Origin: a virus
Length of the DNA: 64,000 bases
IMG/VR virus record: IMGVR_UViG_3300037089_000505
Span: 79,948-143,947 of that record
Direction: 5' to 3' (one strand)
Below, one piece after another: positions 2,802 to 63,414 of the stretch. The notes beneath the pieces were generated by a model. That model was not told the origin of the DNA. It was given only the letters and a program-made list of their open reading frames with translations, and did not search any database. Within the stretch, counting starts at the first letter, position 1. The number at the start of each line of letters is the position of its first letter. A program made the position numbers and the translations under genes.

Positions 2802-3362
2802 ATGCCCGTCTATACCAGATGTTTGAAATGTCCCTTGGGACAATACCGCGAAGTAAATGGCTATAAAATCGTTTGGGGTGATGGTAATCTTTCGGCCCCT
2901 ATACTTATTATTGGGGAAGCACCCGGAGAATCGGAAGCAAAGCTTGGACGTCCCTTTGTTGGTAGATCGGGACAGTTCTTACGACACCGATTAGAGCCAT
3001 ATATTGAGTTTCCAAAAGGGTGCTTCATCTCTAACACTTGCCTATGTCGGCCTCCAGACAATCGTAAACCAACCATAGAAGAACAAACTTCTTGTTCTTC
3101 ACATATACACACCATGTTATTCACAATGCGACCAAAATTGATCATTACAGCGGTCAAAGTTGCATCAGATTATTTGAGCATACTTCTAGGTAGGTCATAC
3201 ACAATCTACTTGGCCGAAGCCGCTGAGCTAGAAGACTTAGTTTTTGTATGGTTGCCTATTTATCACCCGTCTTATGTAATGAGAGCCAAAGAGACGACGG
3301 CTACGTTTGAAAATACATTAAGATCATACGCAAAGCTATTCAAGAGTATAGGAGATTTCTAA
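2802..3362 (+). CDS. uracil-DNA glycosylase, family 4-like
   Basis: CxxC, IIGEAPG, GRPFVGRSG, CRPPDNRKP and YHPS motifs. Confidence 0.9.
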   Translation: MPVYTRCLKCPLGQYREVNGYKIVWGDGNLSAPILIIGEAPGESEAKLGRPFVGRSGQFLRHRLEPYIEFPKGCFISNTCLCRPPDNRKPTIEEQTSCSSHIHTMLFTMRPKLIITAVKVASDYLSILLGRSYTIYLAEAAELEDLVFVWLPIYHPSYVMRAKETTATFENTLRSYAKLFKSIGDF

Positions 3363-32420: not shown

Positions 32421-32773
32421 GGGGACGTTAAGGTTTCGACTGGAATTGGTTCGGTCTTGGATCGCAAGTAGAGTGCTAAACTCTTAAATTAGCAAAAACA
32501 CAACTGCCGAAAATTTTGACGCAGATTTTGCTCTGGCTGCTTAAACAGTCCTCGCACGGGTCTTCAGAGTCTAGTCTCCAACATCTGAATTAACCTGAAA
32601 CAAATCGAGACTTACTTATAGATGATTTCGTTACATCTCTAAGAAAACTATAACGAATTTGATAAAGAGCAGAAGTTGGCTCTTAACTCTTTATCGAGAA
32701 AACAATACCAACTAAACTTGTAGAAGTTCTTGATCAGCATTCCAACACGCGGGTCCGACTCCCGCCGTCTCCA
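32421..32773 (+). ncRNA. ssrA: tmRNA; tag (A)AENFDADFALAA at 32506-32544
   Basis: GGGGACG/CGTCTCC-A acceptor with G3.U; GGTTTCGAC 5' motif; T-arm GCGGG-TCCGACT-CCCGC; tag ends in ALAA-stop. Confidence 0.95.
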
Positions 32774-35523: not shown

Positions 35524-35537
35524 AAGATAATTACATG
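35524..35537 (+). promoter_or_regulatory. example of promoter class B, AAGATAA-N4-ATG
   Basis: identical motif and spacing at 18027, 36249, 39220, 45200, 51864, 58435 and 63616. Confidence 0.75.
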
Positions 35538-38378: not shown

Positions 38379-38426
38379 AGATAATTTCGACACACATATA
38401 TACTATACACAAGGTGGTAACGTATC

Positions 38427-39053
38427 ATGGCTGACGTTTTAGCGCAGAGAGTCCTTGTGCTTAACAAGGGCTACAATCCAATCAGAATCATCAGCGTGCG
38501 CGAAGCGTTCATAAAACTCTACGCAGAAGTCGCTGAAGTAGTCACCGTCGAAGAAGGTAACTACTGCAACTATGATTTCAACTCTTGGGCAGAAGTCTCT
38601 GAGTTGAAAGAAAAGTTGGAAGATCTTGGAGAGCTCGATGATGTAGTCTACACTGCTAGATTCATACTCATCGTGCCCAGGATCATCAGACTTCTGGCTT
38701 ATGACAAGGTTCCAAAGAGGACGCTCAAGCTGACCCGAAAAAACATTTACGCACGAGACTTGAGTACTTGTCAGTATTGCGGTAAGGAGTTACCAACTGA
38801 AGACTTGAATCTCGACCACGTCATGCCAAAGTCTCAAGGTGGTCAGGCGACTTGGACAAACCTTGTTTGTTCTTGTATCGTTTGTAACACTAAGAAAGCA
38901 GGCAGGAGTCCGAAGGAAGCTCACATGAAATTGATCAAGCTTCCGGTCGAGCCAAAGTATAATCCAATGCTCCAGGTCCACATCGAGAGCGAGAAGTATG
39001 GTGCCTGGAAGAGCTTCATCAGCGAAGCTTATTGGACCACTGAATTGCATTAG
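38427..39053 (+). CDS. HNH endonuclease (HNH_5/McrA-like)
   Basis: VLVLN..Y.P, TRKNIYARD..CQYCG, LDHVMPKSQGG..W.NLV.SC..CN..K. Confidence 0.9.
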   Translation: MADVLAQRVLVLNKGYNPIRIISVREAFIKLYAEVAEVVTVEEGNYCNYDFNSWAEVSELKEKLEDLGELDDVVYTARFILIVPRIIRLLAYDKVPKRTLKLTRKNIYARDLSTCQYCGKELPTEDLNLDHVMPKSQGGQATWTNLVCSCIVCNTKKAGRSPKEAHMKLIKLPVEPKYNPMLQVHIESEKYGAWKSFISEAYWTTELH

Positions 39054-39138
39054 GGAAGACAGCGGGAAGATAAAATCTCTTAAAGAGATAATGAAGCATC
39101 GGTTTGCTATTCAATCTTCCCGCTAATTCTCCATATAC

Positions 39139-39211
39139 GCCGGCTTAGCTTATTTGGCAAAGCGCCTGATCCGTAATCAGGAGAGGCCCGGTTCGAGCCC
39201 GGGAGTCGGCT
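39139..39211 (+). tRNA. tRNA-Thr(CGT), C33
   Basis: GCCGGCT/AGTCGGC acceptor; CCTGA-TC CGT AA-TCAGG; TTCGAG T-loop. Confidence 0.88.
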
Positions 39212-39230
39212 TTCTACACAAGATAATTAA

Positions 39231-40490
39231 ATGATCTACTATTACAATAGGGGCGCATCGCACGGCACTGGCGTCGATAAAGGCAAACACTGGATAGAGT
39301 TTTTAGTGACGTTCGACGGGGGCATGGGTGGTACTGAACTTACTCAGCAAGAATTAATCAAAGAAGTATTTAGTTACGCTCAGCGCGGATATATAATAGA
39401 ACTAAACATATCAAAAAGTTTTTTGATACAACAGCAAGCTAAAAGTCAAGGCCTTAAGTATGTAGATCTTAAATTGGAAAAAATGTGTGACTTACTATAG
39501 AGAATTTTGGACAGAAGGCAATAAACATATAGCTGATTTTTATGCTACCTATGGAGAGGCGCCAAATATTTTTGCAGCTTTAAGCGAACAGAAATTCATA
39601 CGGAGAATATTTAAATACGCTGCTGATGGTATGATCCTTCGACTTCATATTGATGACAGGCTAAAATGAAAATGGTTAAATCATTTACTTGGTTCGGTAA
39701 TAAACTTTTCAGGGTCTTTCTCTATAAACGCATATCTGCTACTACAAAAGCAAAAGCTATTTGGGCAGAAAGGAATTTTTTGGGTTGGGAAAAGGGTGAA
39801 TTACTTCACACAAAGTATGGTTGGAGTTTAGAGTATCATTCTACGGGACAAGGACCGGGCTCTATACATAAACATATTTCCTTAAACTCAGTAGAGCTAC
39901 CAACAGAGACGCTTCCGAAGCTAAAAGAAATTTCTTGTCAAAACTTAATGAAGCAAATTTTTGAATGGGAGTGGCAATGAAATTCACAAGAATGGACCCA
40001 CAATATTATAGTAAAAATATTTTTGCTTTTAACTATGGGGAGTATAAGACTGGACAGGGCTTGGCCGCCTATTATGACTATGATCTTCCGAGCCGCAATA
40101 AATGGTCTTGGGGTATAATGATGTCCCATAATGAGTTAACTAAAAATAATTTATTGCCGCCAATTAAATATGATGAAATACCCAGTCAAGCCCTTCATAG
40201 TTTGATAGTAGACTTATTTACTTTACCAAAAATAAAATTTAATCCGGCTCAAGATCCTGTCCATAGTAAATTTGAATGGTCTTAGCGAAATTATGAAAGT
40301 GGCCTACGGAAAATATAGCAAATGGTATAAGCCCAGCGACCACATGGTTATTGGTTGCTCAACAAAAGAAAAGTCCATATTGATTCTTCCGAGTCTTTTA
40401 GATATAACTTGGTATATAGCTAGTATAAAAGAATATCAGATGTTAATAAAAAATATATTTGAGGCCATAAAAATAGAGAACAAAACTTAG
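39231..40490 (+). CDS. five small hypothetical proteins with LIxxIF-type motif
   Basis: ORFs 39231-39500, 39487-39669, 39666-39980, 39965-40285 and 40272-40490 after AAGATAA-N4-ATG. Confidence 0.65.
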
Positions 40491-40529
40491 TTTCGATCAC
40501 AAGATAAATTACCAATGAAAGGCATAGAT

Positions 40530-40589
40530 ATGTATATGAATCAGTCGCTCGCAACATTCCAACAGACCCAAACTACAGATACTGTTTGA
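40530..40589 (+). CDS. leader peptide 1 MYMNQSLATFQQTQTTDTV (alternative in-frame start 40515)
   Basis: GAAAGG 7 nt upstream; Thr/Gln/Asp-rich; directly followed by antiterminator/terminator. Confidence 0.75.
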   Translation: MYMNQSLATFQQTQTTDTV

Positions 40590-40640
40590 ACTTTTGCGGG
40601 GAGTGCGTAATACAGACTTCCCAAAGTGGAAGTCTTTTTT
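40590..40640 (+). promoter_or_regulatory. attenuator 1: alternative antiterminator and intrinsic terminator
   Basis: terminator AGACTTCC-CAAAGT-GGAAGTCT-T5 (40614-40640); competing ACTTT..GGGGAGT (40590-40604) pairs with ACTTCCC-AAAGT (40616-40627). Confidence 0.75.
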
Positions 40641-40848
40641 GTTGAAGGTGGCATATGAGGAGGAAAAAGAAAAGGATTCAGCGTTGGAGACAGAATTCTT
40701 GCGAAGGCAAGGTTGACTTCAAATCTATCGAGACGGCGGAGAAAGCAGCAGCCAGGTTGAATGAAAAGAAGAACAGACCTGGATATCATGAATTAGAAGC
40801 TTACCAATGTTCCTTCTGTAAAGGATGGCATATTGGTAAAAAGTATAC

Positions 40849-40920
40849 GCCGGCGTAGCTCAATGGCAGAGCGGTACCTTTGTAAGGTAAGGGTTGGGGG
40901 TTCAAGTCCCTCCGTCGGCT
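40849..40920 (+). tRNA. tRNA-Thr(TGT)
   Basis: GCCGGCG/CGTCGGC; TACC-TT TGT AA-GGTA; TTCAAGT T-loop. Confidence 0.88.
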
Positions 40921-40927
40921 TAAACAT

Positions 40928-41000
40928 AGAGCCGTAGTGTATCGGTTTAGCACGCGAGACCGTCAATCTCGAAGGGCGGGTTCAACTCCCGTCGGTTCTG
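40928..41000 (+). tRNA. tRNA-Asp(GTC), C33
   Basis: AGAGCCG/CGGTTCT-G; CGAGA-CC GTC AA-TCTCG. Confidence 0.88.
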
Positions 41001-41001
41001 T

Positions 41002-41610
41002 ATGAGAAAATTATTTCTTGTTTTGTTTTTATTCGTAGCTGCTCTTTCATTTGCTAATAAGAGCTGGTATGTAGATCAGAATGGAACTGGCATAGGAAAC
41101 TGTGGACCGGCAACGGTAGCTATGATGATTTCTTATACAGAACACGTTCGCATTCCAGTACAAGTAATTCGGGAAGAGATAGGATATACAAGAGATGATG
41201 GCAGTACAGATCTTGAAGAGTTATCAGGTGTTCTTGAGCGTCATAAAATTCGTTATTCTAAAACAGAAATAAAGACGAAGGTTGATTTGGATGAGCTTTT
41301 GGAAACTCATCACATAGTTTTAGTTGACGTAGATATGAGCTATATCCCTAATAAGAGCAACTATGATAAAGGTCACTACTTGATTCTGTCTAGCTATAGT
41401 GAAGGGACTTATGAGGCTCAAGATCCTCTTAATGGATCTGATGTTCATTACAACGCTGATGCAATATGGTCAGCTATGAAAACGAGAGAAGTACTTGTAA
41501 CTGGTAATGGAAGACTGCCACTAGTAGGTTTTGGATTTATTACCCAAATACTATTAGTCATCGACATTAGTGCTATCGTAGTTCCGAAGAAAATTATTTT
41601 GCCGTGTTAG
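41002..41610 (+). CDS. secreted C39-like cysteine peptidase
   Basis: signal peptide; Q....NCGPATVAM, GHYLIL and QDP. Confidence 0.75.
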   Translation: MRKLFLVLFLFVAALSFANKSWYVDQNGTGIGNCGPATVAMMISYTEHVRIPVQVIREEIGYTRDDGSTDLEELSGVLERHKIRYSKTEIKTKVDLDELLETHHIVLVDVDMSYIPNKSNYDKGHYLILSSYSEGTYEAQDPLNGSDVHYNADAIWSAMKTREVLVTGNGRLPLVGFGFITQILLVIDISAIVVPKKIILPC

Positions 41611-41702
41611 CTCAGTTGGTAGCAGCGTTTCCTTGGAGAATGCTTTTTTAAGAGAGCACTGTCCTAAGGAAAAGGTCCCCAGTTCAATTCTGGGACACGG
41701 CT
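41601..41702 (+). tRNA. tRNA, probably Thr(GGT), with a 28-nt insert in the anticodon loop
   Basis: GCCGTGT/ACACGGC-T acceptor like the other Thr tRNAs; TTTCC/GGAAA stem encloses 35 nt instead of 7. Confidence 0.75.
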
Positions 41703-41893
41703 CTCGTCTCGACACATAGACGCATGGGTAAAACTCGAGTCAAGACCCAAGTATTCTAAAGTCTAATAGAGCAGCTTTCTAGAAAGCTATCGAGTACTTA
41801 ATTAGACATTAGCTGAACGATATCGCATTGCGATAGTAGGCGAAGTATTCAATGGCAAAGCGGTAAAGGTGCGACAGCCGGGAGAGACCGGCT
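41703..41893 (+). ncRNA. candidate structured non-coding RNA
   Basis: successive stems CGTCT/AGACG, TGGGT/ACCCA, GTCTAAT/ATTAGAC, TATCGC/GCGATA and AGCCGG/CCGGCT. Confidence 0.5.
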
Positions 41894-41946
41894 TTATTTG
41901 GAATCATTGCTCGTTGAGCAAAAGTAATATTTATAGAGGAGTTAAA

Positions 41947-43143
41947 ATGAAAAGATTCAAGAATCTGTTCTTGTTTTTGGCTGTTCTTGTATTAGCGTCA
42001 GCTAGTGCTTGGGCGATGCCAGCGGCAGGTAAGACTCTTACCATCGGATTGGTACTGGTCGGACCTTACAATGATCTAGGATGGAGTCAGGCAAATTATG
42101 ATGGCGTTCAATACGTCGTCAAGAATGTTCCTGGAGTTCAGTTCATTTATATTGACAAGGCTAATCCAGCAGACAGGCCGGGAACGACAGTGTCTCAACT
42201 AGCTGAAAGTTTGGTTGCAAAGGGCGCGAAGCTAATTATCTTCAGCTCAGATGATATGGGTGATGAGGCAGTTAAGTTTGCTACAGCGCATCCTGATATT
42301 TTCGTTGTTATGACTTCTGGTAGCCAGGTATGGAATGCTGGAAAAACCTATCAGAACCTACCGAACATGATTAACATCATGGGTCGTATGGAATTTGGCA
42401 AGATGATCGCAGGAGTTGCCGCCGCCATGACGACAAAGACTGGTAAAATTGGTTACCTCGGACCACTTATCAATGATGAAACGAGGCGATTGTGTTCTTC
42501 AGTATATCTTGGAGCCAAGTACGCTTGGACAAATTACTTGAAGAAAGATGCTGCTAAGCTTCAATTCAAGGTAACTTGGATTGGATTCTGGTTTAACATT
42601 CCGGGTATCACTTCAGATCCCTCACAAGTGGCCGATGCATTTTTCAATGATGGTTACGACGTGGTAGTTTCTGGTATTGATACTAGCGAAGTTGTTACAG
42701 AGGCAGCAAAGTTTACGGCTCAAGGCAAGAAAGTTTTCGCAATTCCTTACGATTACTCAAGCGCCTTCGCCGCTTCACCTGAGGTTAATTTGGGCGTTCC
42801 TTATTTTAATTGGGGTCCTGCTTATGTAGTAGCTGCAAAAGCTGCAATGGGTGGTTCTTGGGTTTCCCACTTTGAGTGGAACTCCCCCGACTGGAAGAAT
42901 GTTAACAACCCTGATACATCAGCGGTTGGTTTCAACAAGGGCAAGGCACTTTCACCTAAGGCTTCGGCTGCAGTTGATAAGTTTCTTTCCGAACTTGCAT
43001 CAGGACTTAACCTATGGAAAGGTCCTATGAAGCTTCAAGATGGTAAGACCTACTTGGTCGATGACCAGAAGGCAACAGATCAGCAGATCTGGTATTTGCC
43101 TCAACTCTTGGAAAATATGCAAGGACAGAGCGTTTCGAAGTAG
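41947..43143 (+). CDS. BMP-family ABC transporter substrate-binding protein
   Basis: signal peptide; GPYNDLGWSQA, AG.AAAMTTKTGKIGYLG, WIGFWF and FNWGPAY. Confidence 0.88.
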   Translation: MKRFKNLFLFLAVLVLASASAWAMPAAGKTLTIGLVLVGPYNDLGWSQANYDGVQYVVKNVPGVQFIYIDKANPADRPGTTVSQLAESLVAKGAKLIIFSSDDMGDEAVKFATAHPDIFVVMTSGSQVWNAGKTYQNLPNMINIMGRMEFGKMIAGVAAAMTTKTGKIGYLGPLINDETRRLCSSVYLGAKYAWTNYLKKDAAKLQFKVTWIGFWFNIPGITSDPSQVADAFFNDGYDVVVSGIDTSEVVTEAAKFTAQGKKVFAIPYDYSSAFAASPEVNLGVPYFNWGPAYVVAAKAAMGGSWVSHFEWNSPDWKNVNNPDTSAVGFNKGKALSPKASAAVDKFLSELASGLNLWKGPMKLQDGKTYLVDDQKATDQQIWYLPQLLENMQGQSVSK

Positions 43144-43153
43144 TATTACAATT

Positions 43154-43179
43154 AGAGGGCAAGGCTTCTTGCCCTCTTT
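43154..43179 (+). terminator. hairpin, probable terminator overlapping a promoter start
   Basis: AGAGGGCAAG-GCTT-CTTGCCCTCT-TT. Confidence 0.65.
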
Positions 43180-43182
43180 CAC

Positions 43183-43256
43183 TCGCCCTTGGCCAAGTGG
43201 ATTAAGGCAGAAGACTTTGGATCTTCTATGCGCAGGTTCGAATCCTGCAGGGCGAA
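43183..43256 (+). tRNA. tRNA-Gln(TTG)
   Basis: TCGCCCT/AGGGCGA; GAAGA-CT TTG GA-TCTTC. Confidence 0.92.
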
Positions 43257-43265
43257 TATTTACAC

Positions 43266-43340
43266 TGTCCCGTAGCTTAGCTGGCCGAAAGCGTCTGTCT
43301 CTGGAACAGAAGAGCCTCCGTTCAAATCGGAGCGGGACAA
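43266..43340 (+). tRNA. tRNA-Gln(CTG)
   Basis: TGTCCCG/CGGGACA; TCTGT-CT CTG GA-ACAGA. Confidence 0.92.
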
Positions 43341-43354
43341 AAAGAAAGGGAAAC

Positions 43355-43771
43355 ATGGAACTAATAATTTCAATCGGTCTCCCCGGCTCTGGCAAATCTA
43401 CTTACTATCGCACAGCGCTTGCGAAAAGTCACACACAAATCTCCAAGGATCTAATGAGCGGCTCTCCAACTAGAAAAAATCAGATTCAGATTGACATGAT
43501 TACTCAATCTCTAACTAAAGGATTGAATGCAGTAATCGACAATACTAGTGTCACAGCTGAAGTTCGGAGGCCTTTAATTGAGCTCGGCCACAAACTTGGC
43601 GCAAAGGTAATTGCGTATTACTTTCCGACTTCAGTCAAAGATTGTATTGCTCGCAATGCTCAGCGAACGGGTAGGGCTAAAGTACCAAATGTGGCTATCT
43701 ACACTATGGCAAAGAAGCTTCAAGGGCCAACAAAAGCTGAAGGCTTTGACGACATAATTACGATCAATTGA
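43355..43771 (+). CDS. P-loop polynucleotide kinase-like (AAA_33) protein
   Basis: GLPGSGKST, ISKD, VIDNT....R, C.ARN..R...VP and P...EGFD. Confidence 0.85.
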   Translation: MELIISIGLPGSGKSTYYRTALAKSHTQISKDLMSGSPTRKNQIQIDMITQSLTKGLNAVIDNTSVTAEVRRPLIELGHKLGAKVIAYYFPTSVKDCIARNAQRTGRAKVPNVAIYTMAKKLQGPTKAEGFDDIITIN

Positions 43772-44038
43772 GGCATCTATGAATGAAACTGATCATCCTA
43801 TTTTTCAAAGCTTGACTGATTTTAATTGGTATAAGTCTTCGCTAGACGTTGCCAGTCGTTACCATTTCCGCCACCGTGGAGAGCCTAAGAAATATCCTTG
43901 CAAGCTTCTTCACTCCGAATTTGATTCAGATTCTAACGGACCTGACGGTTATAATCATTCTTTCATTTACTTACAGGAAGTCAAGTGTCCGATGTGTGAA
44001 CACAAAGAGTTTGTGTGGCCACAAATTGAGGACGAAAC

Positions 44039-44569
44039 ATGAACCAAGAAAATACAAAAAAGCTTTTAGATCGATTCAATTTCTTTCAGCCCACTATGCA
44101 TAATCCAAGAAGATTTTGGGGCTTTGAATGCGGAGACGGTTGGTTTGAGTTGATTTGGAAGCTATGTGAAGATTTAGATGAAATGCGAAAGCATTTAATC
44201 ATTATTCCAGAAGATCCATTTCAGGCTCTTCAAGTCAAAGAAAAATTCGGCGGATTAAGATTTTACATCAATGGGTGTAGCAATGACATGTTCCAGCGAA
44301 TTCTCAAAGCTGAACATGATTCTTTTTCAATTTGTGAAAATTGCGGAAAGGCAGGCGAGCTCAGACCGGGCGGATGGGTTAAAACTCTTTGTGATGAATG
44401 CTGCGAAGCTCGCTATGTAGAAGATTGTAGCATGTGTCATTTGTGCCATGATCCAAACGAAGAAACTATTCAAGCTATTCAAGAAGCTCGTGGAAGCGAA
44501 AATATTTCTCCCGAGCCATTAGAGCCTATTGAAAAACTACTTGAGGACTATGATAAGAGGAATCCATGA
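44039..44569 (+). CDS. conserved phage hypothetical protein
   Basis: ECGDGWFELI, QVKEKFGGLRFY, CENCG and W..TLCDEC. Confidence 0.7.
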   Translation: MNQENTKKLLDRFNFFQPTMHNPRRFWGFECGDGWFELIWKLCEDLDEMRKHLIIIPEDPFQALQVKEKFGGLRFYINGCSNDMFQRILKAEHDSFSICENCGKAGELRPGGWVKTLCDECCEARYVEDCSMCHLCHDPNEETIQAIQEARGSENISPEPLEPIEKLLEDYDKRNP

Positions 44570-44935
44570 TCTTAGCGTTTAAACTAACAATGCCTGGTTC
44601 GCCAAGTTGGAATGGAAAATGGAGCGGCGAAGGTCGACTCTATGCACGAACTCGAACAGTCACAAAGAAAAAAGGCGAAGAGGTTTTGGGCGGATCTGAC
44701 AAGAAATTCTTCGGCTATCGCTGGTCTGATGGTTGGTTTGCTAGTGTTGAAGTTGAACAAGTGAACAGCAACGAAAAAAGAAAACTCACAAAAGATTCAG
44801 TTGGATTTGCTAGCTATGATTGGATGATAGATTCAATTCTAACTCACGGCAAAATCTTAGCCTCTTAGCTTTTTCAAAAACGTACCAAACATTGGCAGTA
44901 AAGACGCAAAGATAAAAGCGAAGGAGGGACCGCTA

Positions 44936-45148
44936 ATGAGTGATTTCAATGTTGAAGATGATCTAGTATATAAGGTGTCCGATGGCGACCCAGATACTGA
45001 CGACAGCGATGATTTGGATCCATCCGATTTTCCTGATTTCGACATTCCAGATGATTTTGATCCCGATGATGACGATGCTTTCGATGACGACAACGTCCTT
45101 GATGATTTTGAGGATGACGATATCGACATCGATATAGACGAGCAGTAA
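44936..45148 (+). CDS. hyper-acidic small protein
   Basis: 35 of 70 residues are D/E; SD AAGGAGG; own AAGATAA motif and terminator. Confidence 0.75.
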   Translation: MSDFNVEDDLVYKVSDGDPDTDDSDDLDPSDFPDFDIPDDFDPDDDDAFDDDNVLDDFEDDDIDIDIDEQ

Positions 45149-45162
45149 AAACAAAACAATTG

Positions 45163-45186
45163 GCCAGCTTTGTCGCTGGCTTTTTT
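45163..45186 (+). terminator. intrinsic terminator
   Basis: GCCAGC-TTTGTC-GCTGGC-T6. Confidence 0.8.
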
Positions 45187-46550
45187 GTGTGTAGTAAGAA
45201 AGATAATTCTATGGCAAGAGCAGTAAAGAGATTAGTCGTCGGTCAACAATATATAGATAAATCGCCAAGTGTACCAAAGGCCTTTTTCTTAATAAAAGTT
45301 AAATATATTGATAAACGTACTCGCCGACCAGCTATAAGTCGATTAGCTAAAATAACTCGTAAAGGTGTCACTTCAGACATATACCCTTTGAGTGGCGGCT
45401 ATGAGTTTCAAGATGACGCTCATACCAAACGCACATACAACAAACATGAGTTCATCAAATTCATTTACAAAAAAATAGATACGGAGTTTTAATATGAAGA
45501 AGCTATTATTAACCTTAGCCTTATTATTAGTAGCAGCAATAAGTTTTGCTACTTCAACTGTTACCGACTGGAGCAAATATTGGACTAATAGACTCACTAC
45601 TGTCGGCGTAGTAGCTGGCGTAACTAAAGTCAATGCGTTATATTTAGTGAACTTTGTAGGAACACCAACAAATAACGAACTTAGAATAATAGTAACCTGT
45701 AGTGATCCTACTGTTGTGTTTACTAAGTATGATAATATAGCTATATCAGCCGCTATCATAAAGAATTTGAGTGCCATCAAAACATATAATGGATTGACAA
45801 CAATATACATAGTCACTTTTCCTTACACGAGAGCTATGTTTGTCAAAGATTTATTAGCACCACCGAAGAAACAAAATTTAATGAGTATAACGGTATTAAA
45901 AGATGAAACCCAAAAAAAGAAATAATACTCGAAAACCTCGAACGACACTACCAGCAGCACCAGTCATTGTTCAACTTCAACAACCGCCAGCTCTCATTGA
46001 AGAAAAAAAGTCTCCTCTTAGAAATTTATTTGAAAAGTGGATTGCTCCTCTTATCTTAGCAATTATTGTGGCAGCTGTTAGCTACACATTTTTAGATCGA
46101 CTAACTAAAGTTGAAAATATTCTGGCCGATTTACAAAAAACTGTAACTGAATTAGATACTAGTTATTCCAAAGACTCTGAAACTAAAGGGTCGATGGCTG
46201 CTGACGTTAAGCAATTAGATAGATGTTGGCATCTTGAAGGACGAAGATGATTTATTACCACAAGAGCGATAAAGAATGGTATGAAACATGGGCGTGGCCG
46301 AAAGCTGACGTTCAAATTTATGTAGAAACACTAGGCCACGTGAGTGCTTCATTTAAGCGTTCTCTTATTATTGATGAATGGAATTATGAATATATAGTTT
46401 CTCACTTTGATTATGAAGAAGAACGTTTCGTTCAAGCCGCTGATCATCAATTAGAAACACTTGTTAAAATGATCTTCAATCCAAAATGGACTATCGAAGA
46501 TCAAAGACCCGCAAAATAGCATATTTTATTTCATTAAGGAAGTAATATAA

Positions 46551-50544: not shown

Positions 50545-50622
50545 ATGACAAAACTTTCTTGGCCGATCAGACACCCCATATACCCAGTAGCAGCCTTTAA
50601 TTATGAAGGAGAAGGTGTGTAG
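50545..50622 (+). CDS. leader peptide 2 MTKLSWPIRHPIYPVAAFNYEGEGV
   Basis: SD AAGGAG at 50536-50541; promoter TTCGAA-N7-TATACT at 50506-50524; stop codon is part of the antiterminator. Confidence 0.8.
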   Translation: MTKLSWPIRHPIYPVAAFNYEGEGV

Positions 50623-50689
50623 CAGGCGCGGCTGACTTTGTCACTTGGAAAGCCCCCTGCTAGGTTCAAACCTGGTAGAGGGCTTTTTT
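50620..50689 (+). promoter_or_regulatory. attenuator 2: alternative antiterminator and intrinsic terminator
   Basis: terminator AAGCCC-C-CTGCTAGG-TTCAAA-CCTGGTAG-A-GGGCTT-T4; competing TAGCAGG..GGCT (50620-50633) pairs with AGCC-C-CCTGCTA (50651-50662). Confidence 0.8.
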
Positions 50690-57415: not shown

Positions 57416-57541
57416 GGGAGTGTAGCTTAGAGTGCATAGTAAGGGCGCTACAGCATTGATCACACTACTGTAGAAGAGCTACTATGACGGCAGAGCGGTC
57501 TCTAACCGGGGCGAACGCTGGTTCGAATCCAGCCACTTCCG
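57416..57541 (+). ncRNA. tRNA-like RNA with a 56-nt D-loop insert and a non-canonical anticodon arm
   Basis: GGGAGTG/CACTTCC-G acceptor (G3.U70); GCTGG-TTCGAAT-CCAGC; GCTT/GAGC D-stem; insert stems CATAGTA/TACTATG and CTACAG/CTGTAG. Confidence 0.7.
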
Positions 57542-62800: not shown

Positions 62801-63361
62801 ATGATTTGCGAAAATTGCAGCAAAGATTTCTCTGAAGATTGGCGAATAGGTAAAAAGAGAGGACTATTACGGTTCTGCTCTTCACGATGTGCAAAGCGTC
62901 GAAAACAAACTGATGCGATTAGAGAGGCAAAAAGTAAAGCTAGCAAAGCTGCTTGGAAAAGAGGTGTCTATAAAAATCAATACAATCACACTTTTTCAAA
63001 AGCAGACAGAAAAAAGGGCATTGATACTTGTATAGAAAAAGCTAAAACAAGAAACGCAGAACTATTAGCCACTCATCAATATGAAAAAATGAGCAATGAG
63101 GTTAGAAGACGATTTATCCTCGACGAAGTTAATCATGCCTGTGAGTCATGTCATAATTCAGAGTGGCTTGGAAAACCAATATGGTTAGAAATACATCACA
63201 AGGATGATGATAATACGAACAATAAACGCGACAATCTTTTAGTTCTTTGTCCAAATTGTCATTCAGCAATAGATGAGAAATATAGGTTTAGAGGGCGAAG
63301 TAGAAAAAAGACCGAAAGTAGCTCAGTTTGGCTTAGAGCATCTGCCTTATCGGAAGCATAG
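62801..63361 (+). CDS. HNH homing endonuclease
   Basis: FCS..C, CESC...W...I.LEIHHKD....NN..DNL..LCPNCHS; 3' end runs into tRNA-Ile. Confidence 0.88.
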   Translation: MICENCSKDFSEDWRIGKKRGLLRFCSSRCAKRRKQTDAIREAKSKASKAAWKRGVYKNQYNHTFSKADRKKGIDTCIEKAKTRNAELLATHQYEKMSNEVRRRFILDEVNHACESCHNSEWLGKPIWLEIHHKDDDNTNNKRDNLLVLCPNCHSAIDEKYRFRGRSRKKTESSSVWLRASALSEA

Positions 63362-63414
63362 GTTGAGTGCTTCAGATAAGCAGGGGGTCGGTGGTTCAAA
63401 TCCACCCTTTCGGA
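63312..63414 (+). tRNA. tRNA-Ile (TAT or GAT) with a 27-nt insert in the anticodon loop
   Basis: CCGAAAG/CTTTCGG-A; TCTGC/GCAGG encloses 34 nt: CT TAT...GAT AA. Confidence 0.78.

Follow-up and report, generated by a model that had tools for sequence, protein, structure and literature searches.

Why would a virus place a short reading frame rich in threonine, glutamine and aspartate codons shortly before a transcription terminator, with tRNA genes for the same three amino acids behind it? The locus lies in what is here called the window, the 64,000-nt stretch of DNA that was analysed and with which a 144-kb IMG/VR virus record, of an estimated completeness of about 63%, ends. The long ORFs of the record are all on the + strand and tightly packed; in the window, tRNA genes are interspersed with small protein genes from 39 kb onward, and a phage tmRNA is encoded at 32421 (32421–32773). 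Both the short ORF and the terminator are held in a 165-nt gap between a 72-aa gene (stop at 40490) and a 67-aa gene (start at 40655). The features of the locus are the following.

40487–40507, + strand: conserved intergenic block TTAGTTTCGA-N4-AAGATAA, upstream of the leader
40519–40522, + strand: weak Shine-Dalgarno-like AAGG, 7 nt upstream of the ATG at 40530
40530–40589, + strand: leader ORF, encoding MYMNQSLATFQQTQTTDTV and a stop; 19 codons, or 24 codons if the start is 40515
40542–40565, + strand: segment 1, the 5′ strand of hairpin P1, variable codons 5–12 (from minimum-energy folds)
40560–40583, + strand: regulatory core CAA CAG ACC CAA ACT ACA GAT ACT (QQTQTTDT), top of hairpin P1
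40582–40608, + strand: segment 2, the 3′ strand of P1, which includes the stop codon and the bases after it
40614–40641, + strand: intrinsic terminator, with 5′ arm (40614–40621), loop, 3′ arm (40628–40635) and T6
40655–40858, + strand: gene of a 67-aa basic, Cys-rich protein, the proposed first regulated gene; its stop codon lies inside tRNA-Thr
40849–41001, + strand: tRNA-Thr(TGT) at 40849 and tRNA-Asp(GTC) at 40927
41601–41702, + strand: tRNA with a 28-nt anticodon-loop insert, probably Thr(GGT)
43183–43340, + strand: tRNA-Gln(TTG) at 43183 and tRNA-Gln(CTG) at 43266

Relatives of the locus are metagenome contigs with readable DNA, reached through homologues of the 67-aa protein, which has close homologues in metagenomes. 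They define five lineages of the module: the window together with the near-identical L007; L009; L011, the homologue of the 67-aa protein of which is only about 60% identical; L006; and L010, a locus belonging to G001, a 250-kb phage with 63 tRNAs. A blastn search with 38400–45200 against a phage GenBank collection gave no match, and single-protein scans of IMG/VR with the 67-aa, 72-aa, 106-aa and 202-aa neighbours yielded nothing useful. Another contig, L002, was dismissed as a relative because its match lies inside a helicase gene. In P0004, a further homologue protein, an N-terminal extension suggests a leader of the G001 type with an additional in-frame codon.

The leader ORF and the tRNA genes behind it

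In-frame ATG codons are found at 40515, 40530 and 40536, and the frame is closed by TGA at 40587–40589. The last 11 sense codons read ACA TTC CAA CAG ACC CAA ACT ACA GAT ACT GTT; nine of them specify Thr (five: ACA twice, ACC, ACT twice), Gln (three: CAA twice, CAG) or Asp (one), as the preliminary description of this DNA had pointed out, and composition and coordinates are both borne out by the sequence. Among 1050 ATG ORFs of 12–40 codons on both strands of the whole 144-kb record, the leader is the sole one with more than seven Thr/Gln/Asp codons in its last 11. An additional argument drawn from the absence of ACG from the leader and the position of tRNA-Thr(CGT) upstream of it is not significant: the tRNA is indeed located at 39139, but ACG makes up only 14% of the Thr codons in the phage, so that its absence from five leader Thr codons is hardly informative.

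Signals for expression of the leader are modest. The AAGG is present at the same position in L009, and a Shine-Dalgarno sequence is nearly missing in L011; genes of the phage are typically enriched in G at −11 to −8, and about half of them carry a Shine-Dalgarno sequence of four to five matching bases. In the window, L009 and L011 the TTAGTTTCGA-N4-AAGATAA block stands 15–25 nt upstream of the leader ATG; it is possibly a promoter or a start signal. AAGATAA itself occurs 63 times on the + strand and 20 times on the − strand of the whole record (about 29 expected), often exactly 4 nt upstream of the ATG of tightly packed genes (in the window, for example, at 35524, 36249, 37874, 39220, 40501 and 58435); it is neither a Shine-Dalgarno sequence nor a clear −10 box. 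A role as the −10 of a leader promoter is not supported, as no −35-like hexamer is found 16–18 nt away and the motif mostly sits 4 nt before starts. The core was also considered as a sigma-70 promoter, with GATACT as −10; this was rejected, since a −35 element is missing and no spacing would survive the 11-nt deletion in L010.

The tRNAs that had been proposed to read the leader codons, namely Thr(TGT), Asp(GTC), Gln(TTG) and Gln(CTG), are all encoded where expected; in the window a Thr/Gln/Asp leader precedes Thr-Asp-Thr-Gln tRNAs. The remaining one, the insert-bearing tRNA at 41601–41702, is real as a tRNA gene, but what it decodes depends on the point at which the 28-nt insert is taken out. 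ARAGORN, when allowing introns, calls it Ser(GGA) with a 28-nt intron; its best alignment is with a Thr(GGT) of G001 that has no insert, and this places the insert between GG and T and favours the GGT assignment given originally. Its homologue in L011 scores 38.5 bits in Rfam. Inserts of 25–55 nt in or next to the anticodon loop are seen in several tRNA genes of this phage clade (window 41601–41702, 57416–57541 and 63312–63414; L011 3085–3186; L007 350–450).

The 67-aa gene is followed by tRNA-Thr(TGT) in the window, L007, L009, L011 and L006. In L011 the arrangement is compact, with leader, Thr(TGT), insert-bearing tRNA and Gln(TTG) within 1.3 kb; in the window the five tRNAs span 2.7 kb, with three protein genes and two hairpins among them, and it is assumed here that the stretch from the leader to the Gln tRNAs is one transcription unit. 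Both hairpins lie between the leader and the Gln tRNAs: one (41876–41893) is AGCCGG..CCGGCT followed by TTATTT, and the other (about 43150–43178) is a 10-bp AGAGGGCAAG/CTTGCCCTCT stem without a U-run. At either, transcripts of the proposed unit could be terminated or processed.

The relation between leader and cargo extends to a second version of the module. In G001 it precedes Asp(GTC), two Glu(TTC) and Glu(CTC); a Thr tRNA is not among them. The leader at this locus, L010, contains three Glu and two Asp codons in nine; at least five Asp/Glu codons are found in three of 1134 ORFs of 8–14 codons. That leader codons track the tRNA cargo, a proposal made for Thr, Gln and Asp in the window, has thereby passed an out-of-sample test, one that rests on a single cargo change.

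Conservation of the element and its alternative pairings

An ATG-started ORF of 10–20 codons, in frame with GAT ACT, is kept open in all five lineages, and the distance from the leader stop to the next start codon is 65–68 nt in each; an ATG ORF in another frame across the core occurs in L010 only. The deduced leader peptides are as follows.

Window and L007: MYMNQSLATFQQTQTTDTV
L009: MNMNQTTVITQQTQTTDTFE
L011: MNMNRNANMIQQTQTTDTT
L006: MEIHAINIQVAQTTDTA
L010: MRCEREDEDT

The 24-nt core CAACAGACYCAAACTACAGATACT is almost invariant, whereas the codons before it and the bases after the stop are scrambled and yet still complementary to each other. Window, L009 and L011 differ in the core by a single synonymous exchange (ACC/ACT); L006 keeps CAA ACT ACA GAT ACA, with a change of ACT to ACA. 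All these core changes are in third positions and preserve Thr. The variable part of the leader is Thr-rich in L009 only. Judged from the sequence comparison, the leader element is a real and conserved one, not a product of chance.

The intrinsic terminator follows the end of the leader ORF by 24 nt. Its arms, AGACTTCC/GGAAGTCT (40614–40635), form an 8-bp GC-containing stem, with a hairpin energy of −10.3 kcal/mol in the window and −10 to −13.7 kcal/mol across the lineages; the stem shows compensatory changes in L006 and L010. The terminator 5′ arm doubles as the 3′ strand of an antiterminator, in which ACTTT..GGGGAGT (40590–40604) pairs with ACTTCCC-AAAGT (40616–40627) and which, at −11.1 kcal/mol, is the minimum-energy fold of the window RNA before the terminator 3′ arm exists. 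Terminator and competing pairing had both been recognized in the preliminary description; they are present, and the pairing covaries with the terminator arm. This does not apply to its ACTTT:AAAGT extension of 5 bp, the part that a terminating ribosome would cover, which is lost in L007 and absent from the other lineages.

Of the parts of an attenuator, ORF, terminator and antiterminator had thus been listed correctly, but a long hairpin enclosing the regulatory codons, P1, had been missed. In every lineage P1 is formed by the scrambled early codons paired with the stop/post-stop stretch, with the core on top and the terminator next to it; the stop codon lies within its 3′ strand. Segment 2 of P1 overlaps the antiterminator 5′ strand (40590–40604, with the core of this pairing, GGGGAGT, at 40598–40604). 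How far the two structures exclude each other varies: P1 shares bases with the antiterminator strand in the window, in L007 and, to the extent of 2 nt, in L011, whereas in L009, L006 and L010 P1 and the 2:3 hairpin, that is, the post-stop strand paired with the terminator 5′ arm (−10 to −11.5 kcal/mol in all lineages), do not overlap and are able to coexist.

RNAalifold on a MAFFT alignment recovered only the terminator and no positionally conserved P1; since P1 could not be aligned in this way, swap and shuffle tests were used instead of a covariance model. When strands were exchanged between lineages (120 permutations), the native 1:2 pairing was the best of the 120, and the native 2:3 pairing ranked within the best 2 of 120. 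Shuffles at the individual loci gave p = 0.007–0.094 for the 2:3 pairing, compared with a median p of 0.27 for 17 ordinary terminators of the same two phages, five of which had p ≤ 0.075. The five leader values are all among the lowest 10 of 22, for which chance is about 0.01; this figure is indicative only because the lineages are related, and the swap and shuffle p-values are not independent, owing to shared ancestry. A search of Rfam with the element returned no leader family at gathering score (the best weak match being Phe_leader, at 21.6 bits versus 55 and E = 0.18) and no match to the T-box (RF00230), for which the element is too short. Taken from its sequence and predicted folds, the element is most likely a switchable terminator.

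The proposed sensor and its alternatives

What would operate the switch? The best-supported mechanism, which in our estimate stands about evenly between being right and being wrong, is a ribosome-mediated (leader-peptide) transcription attenuator of tRNA supply that senses the decoding of Thr, Gln and Asp codons. We infer that the leader ORF is translated, that stalling switches the fold and that tRNA supply is the signal. In one fold, P1, joining the early codons with the stop region, would form together with the terminator and transcription would stop; in the other, the post-stop strand would pair with the terminator 5′ arm and permit read-through. A ribosome waiting at Gln, Thr or Asp codons for a scarce aminoacyl-tRNA would hold P1 open and thereby free the post-stop strand, the antiterminator would form, and RNA polymerase would go on to transcribe the 67-aa gene and the tRNA genes. 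A fast ribosome, on the other hand, would reach the stop, mask the first 10 nt or so beyond it and leave, upon which P1 would re-form and the terminator would win.

The effect of ribosome position was modelled on RNA truncated from the 5′ end to 12 nt beyond the first base of the A-site codon, for which the probability of the terminator stem was computed. For the window this probability is 0.93 without a ribosome, 0.05–0.24 with the A site on codons 6–16, and 0.97 with the ribosome at the stop, the pattern expected of an attenuator. Masking of 12 nt past the stop, the check suggested along with the original description, makes the antiterminator disappear in the window; unmasked, the antiterminator is preferred (−14.8 versus −10.3 kcal/mol). 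The accompanying claim that a ribosome at the stop codon favours termination therefore stands for the window model, but it does not carry over to L009, L006 and L010, where the terminator probability is 0.82–0.98 at every ribosome position; in L011 the terminator is likewise favoured at every position, and modelled ribosome-dependent switching is confined to the window's own variant (window, L007). Further, the antiterminator core begins 8–11 nt past the stop, and a terminating ribosome covers only 0–2 of its bases. In L009, L006 and L010, where P1 and the 2:3 hairpin do not overlap and the terminator probability is high at every position, any switch would have to be kinetic. In the trp attenuator, too, the terminator is more stable than the antiterminator and the choice between them is kinetic, so that the equilibrium models used here neither refute nor show the mechanism.

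An explanation that dispenses with translation, and which we consider unlikely, takes the leader as a structured RNA whose P1 loop, CAAACUACAGAUAC, is bound by a protein or RNA that, by stabilizing or opening P1, sets the terminator, or as an insulator between transcription units; the ORF would then have arisen incidentally in an unpaired loop rich in A and C. It would suit the conservation of the core at the nucleotide level and its presentation atop a hairpin with covarying stems, which fits a binding site in RNA or DNA, as well as the ribosome-independence of the equilibrium models in three lineages and the fact that CAACATTC, common to the window and L006, stands in different frames there. 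Also, the element is always found together with the 67-aa gene, which encodes a product with an N-terminus rich in arginine, and in G001 no leaders were found for the Thr(TGT) and Gln clusters, where hairpins lie inside ORFs; the element thus follows the 67-aa gene and not tRNAs in general. Left unexplained are the retention of open frame, start codon and stop position in five of five lineages, and the cargo-matched reading of the sole open frame, as Thr/Gln/Asp in one version and as Glu/Asp in the other. Moreover, L011 keeps the leader though its 67-aa homologue has lost the arginine-rich N-terminus, and homologues with such an N-terminus occur without a leader (L003), observations by which autoregulation by the 67-aa protein, also considered, is weakened. 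Neither a convincing trans target for the core in the phage nor an Rfam family match was found.

Somewhat less probable again is an ordinary terminator that closes the upstream block of small genes and is sufficiently leaky for expression of the 67-aa gene and the tRNAs, with an ORF that is either untranslated or encodes a small peptide of its own, and a codon match that is coincidental. Terminators are normal at such places, some of the control terminators have weak alternative pairings (the five of 17 mentioned above), sequence complexity as low as that of the leader is met in about 3% of small ORFs, and the comparison set is small and related by descent. However, 95–124 nt, within which the mini-ORF lies, separate the leader terminator from the preceding long ORF, whereas the other clean terminators in both phages lie 10–30 nt after such an ORF, the exception being 50652–50683, at about 190 nt. 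A leaky terminator would also not account for an intergenic element that is better conserved than the neighbouring protein gene, for the covariation of both alternative pairings or for the recurrence of the codon match with different amino acids in L010, and the scrambled N-terminal half of the leader is unlike a functional peptide. A gene for a small regulatory RNA of about 110–130 nt, reaching from the AAGATAA block to the terminator and using the P1 loop as seed for a host or phage target, is improbable: conserved upstream block, invariant-loop hairpin and U-run terminator are the typical layout of a bacterial sRNA, but with only 11–21 nt between U-run and next start codon a separate promoter does not fit, and the downstream genes can be transcribed only by read-through; a plain sRNA, moreover, has no use for the covarying 2:3 pairing, and no convincing target is found in the phage.

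If ribosome-mediated attenuation is retained, a more general proposal may be attached to it, for which we would put the chances a little short of even: phages with large tRNA sets would carry portable sensors of codon-decoding speed, each of which switches on tRNA genes for exactly the codons it contains, with leader codons co-evolving with the cargo. This would constitute a feedback loop on tRNA supply itself, useful when host tRNAs are degraded or cleaved during infection. Giant phages would then meter their tRNA sets codon by codon, with the ribosome as sensor, rather than simply express them, which would have a bearing on what tRNAs are for in phages and on the ways in which phages withstand anticodon nucleases or the depletion of host tRNAs; and a mini-ORF whose codons mirror the downstream tRNAs would become an annotation rule for such switches. 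As the element is short (about 150 nt) and self-contained, it is directly testable in a reporter or cell-free system.

Known attenuators and neighbouring features

With the enterobacterial attenuators (trpL, hisL, thrL, leuL, pheL, ilvL) the element shares a short ORF with regulatory codons, a terminator, a 2:3 antiterminator and a 1:2 hairpin. The former control biosynthetic enzymes, whereas the phage element precedes tRNA genes and a gene for a small phage protein; their regulatory codons lie in the 5′ strand of the 1:2 hairpin, those of the phage in the hairpin top. The phage leader also mixes several amino acids (Thr, Gln, Asp), its 1:2 and 2:3 pairings are non-overlapping in three lineages, and there is no relation in sequence or in Rfam. 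Leader-peptide control of the translation apparatus for the sensed amino acid is known from the pheST (pheM) attenuator of E. coli phenylalanyl-tRNA synthetase; there the target is a synthetase on the bacterial chromosome, while the phage element would control the tRNAs themselves. In T-box riboswitches, as well, the choice between terminator and antiterminator reflects the state of a particular tRNA, but there the uncharged tRNA itself is bound, by means of a long Stem I and a specifier codon, and translation plays no part; the phage element is about 110 nt long, carries an ORF and has no T-box match in Rfam.

Control of bacterial tRNA genes is thought to act at promoters. In a full-text literature search no published case of a leader-peptide attenuator in front of tRNA genes was found, and a leader ORF looked for before E. 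coli pheV is not present. Leader-peptide attenuators do respond to the supply of charged tRNA and, with it, to tRNA gene dosage, the loss of one tRNA-Phe gene de-repressing pheA 6–7 fold (PMC3082878).

A second candidate leader is located in the window at 50545–50622. This ORF, MTKLSWPIRHPIYPVAAFNYEGEGV, has 25 codons and a strong ribosome site (GAAGGAG), and its terminator (50652–50683, −20.6 kcal/mol) is upstream of Pro tRNAs; tests for an antiterminator gave p = 0.49 when based on folds and p = 0.046 when based on duplexes, and a search of G001 for a homologue was negative.

Small phage proteins of a widespread family, to which the 67-aa protein belongs, share the motif C..K[IV]D[YF]KS...LEAY.C..C.GWHIG; members were found at 34 IMG/VR loci (L012, L028–L060), mostly without nearby tRNAs, and one of them (L012, 4158–4396) lies inside an array of 25 tRNA genes. 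The predicted fold of the 67-aa protein (pLDDT 72.7) has no PDB match at E ≤ 0.001, and no Pfam family scored above threshold.

In L007 (451–633), L009 (1015–1230) and L011 (about 2940–3050), but not in the window, some 190 nt of structured sequence lie between tRNA-Thr and the tRNA that follows. An Asp-like anticodon arm, CCTGTCAAG, is part of this sequence, and neither ARAGORN nor Rfam recognizes a tRNA in it. The 63 tRNAs of G001 (L014–L026; 193117–193367 and 209805–210079) are largely sorted by amino acid, and a tmRNA is encoded there as well. Among the tRNAs are two with a CTA anticodon, that is, amber readers, and one call with a four-base anticodon (gaaa); as the G001 leader ends in TAG, suppression could carry ribosomes through the terminator. 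In the window, finally, the stop codon of the 67-aa gene lies in the acceptor stem of tRNA-Thr(TGT) (40846–40858), a layout shared by L007, and an RNase P cut at the tRNA 5′ end would leave an mRNA without a stop codon, in a phage that encodes its own tmRNA.
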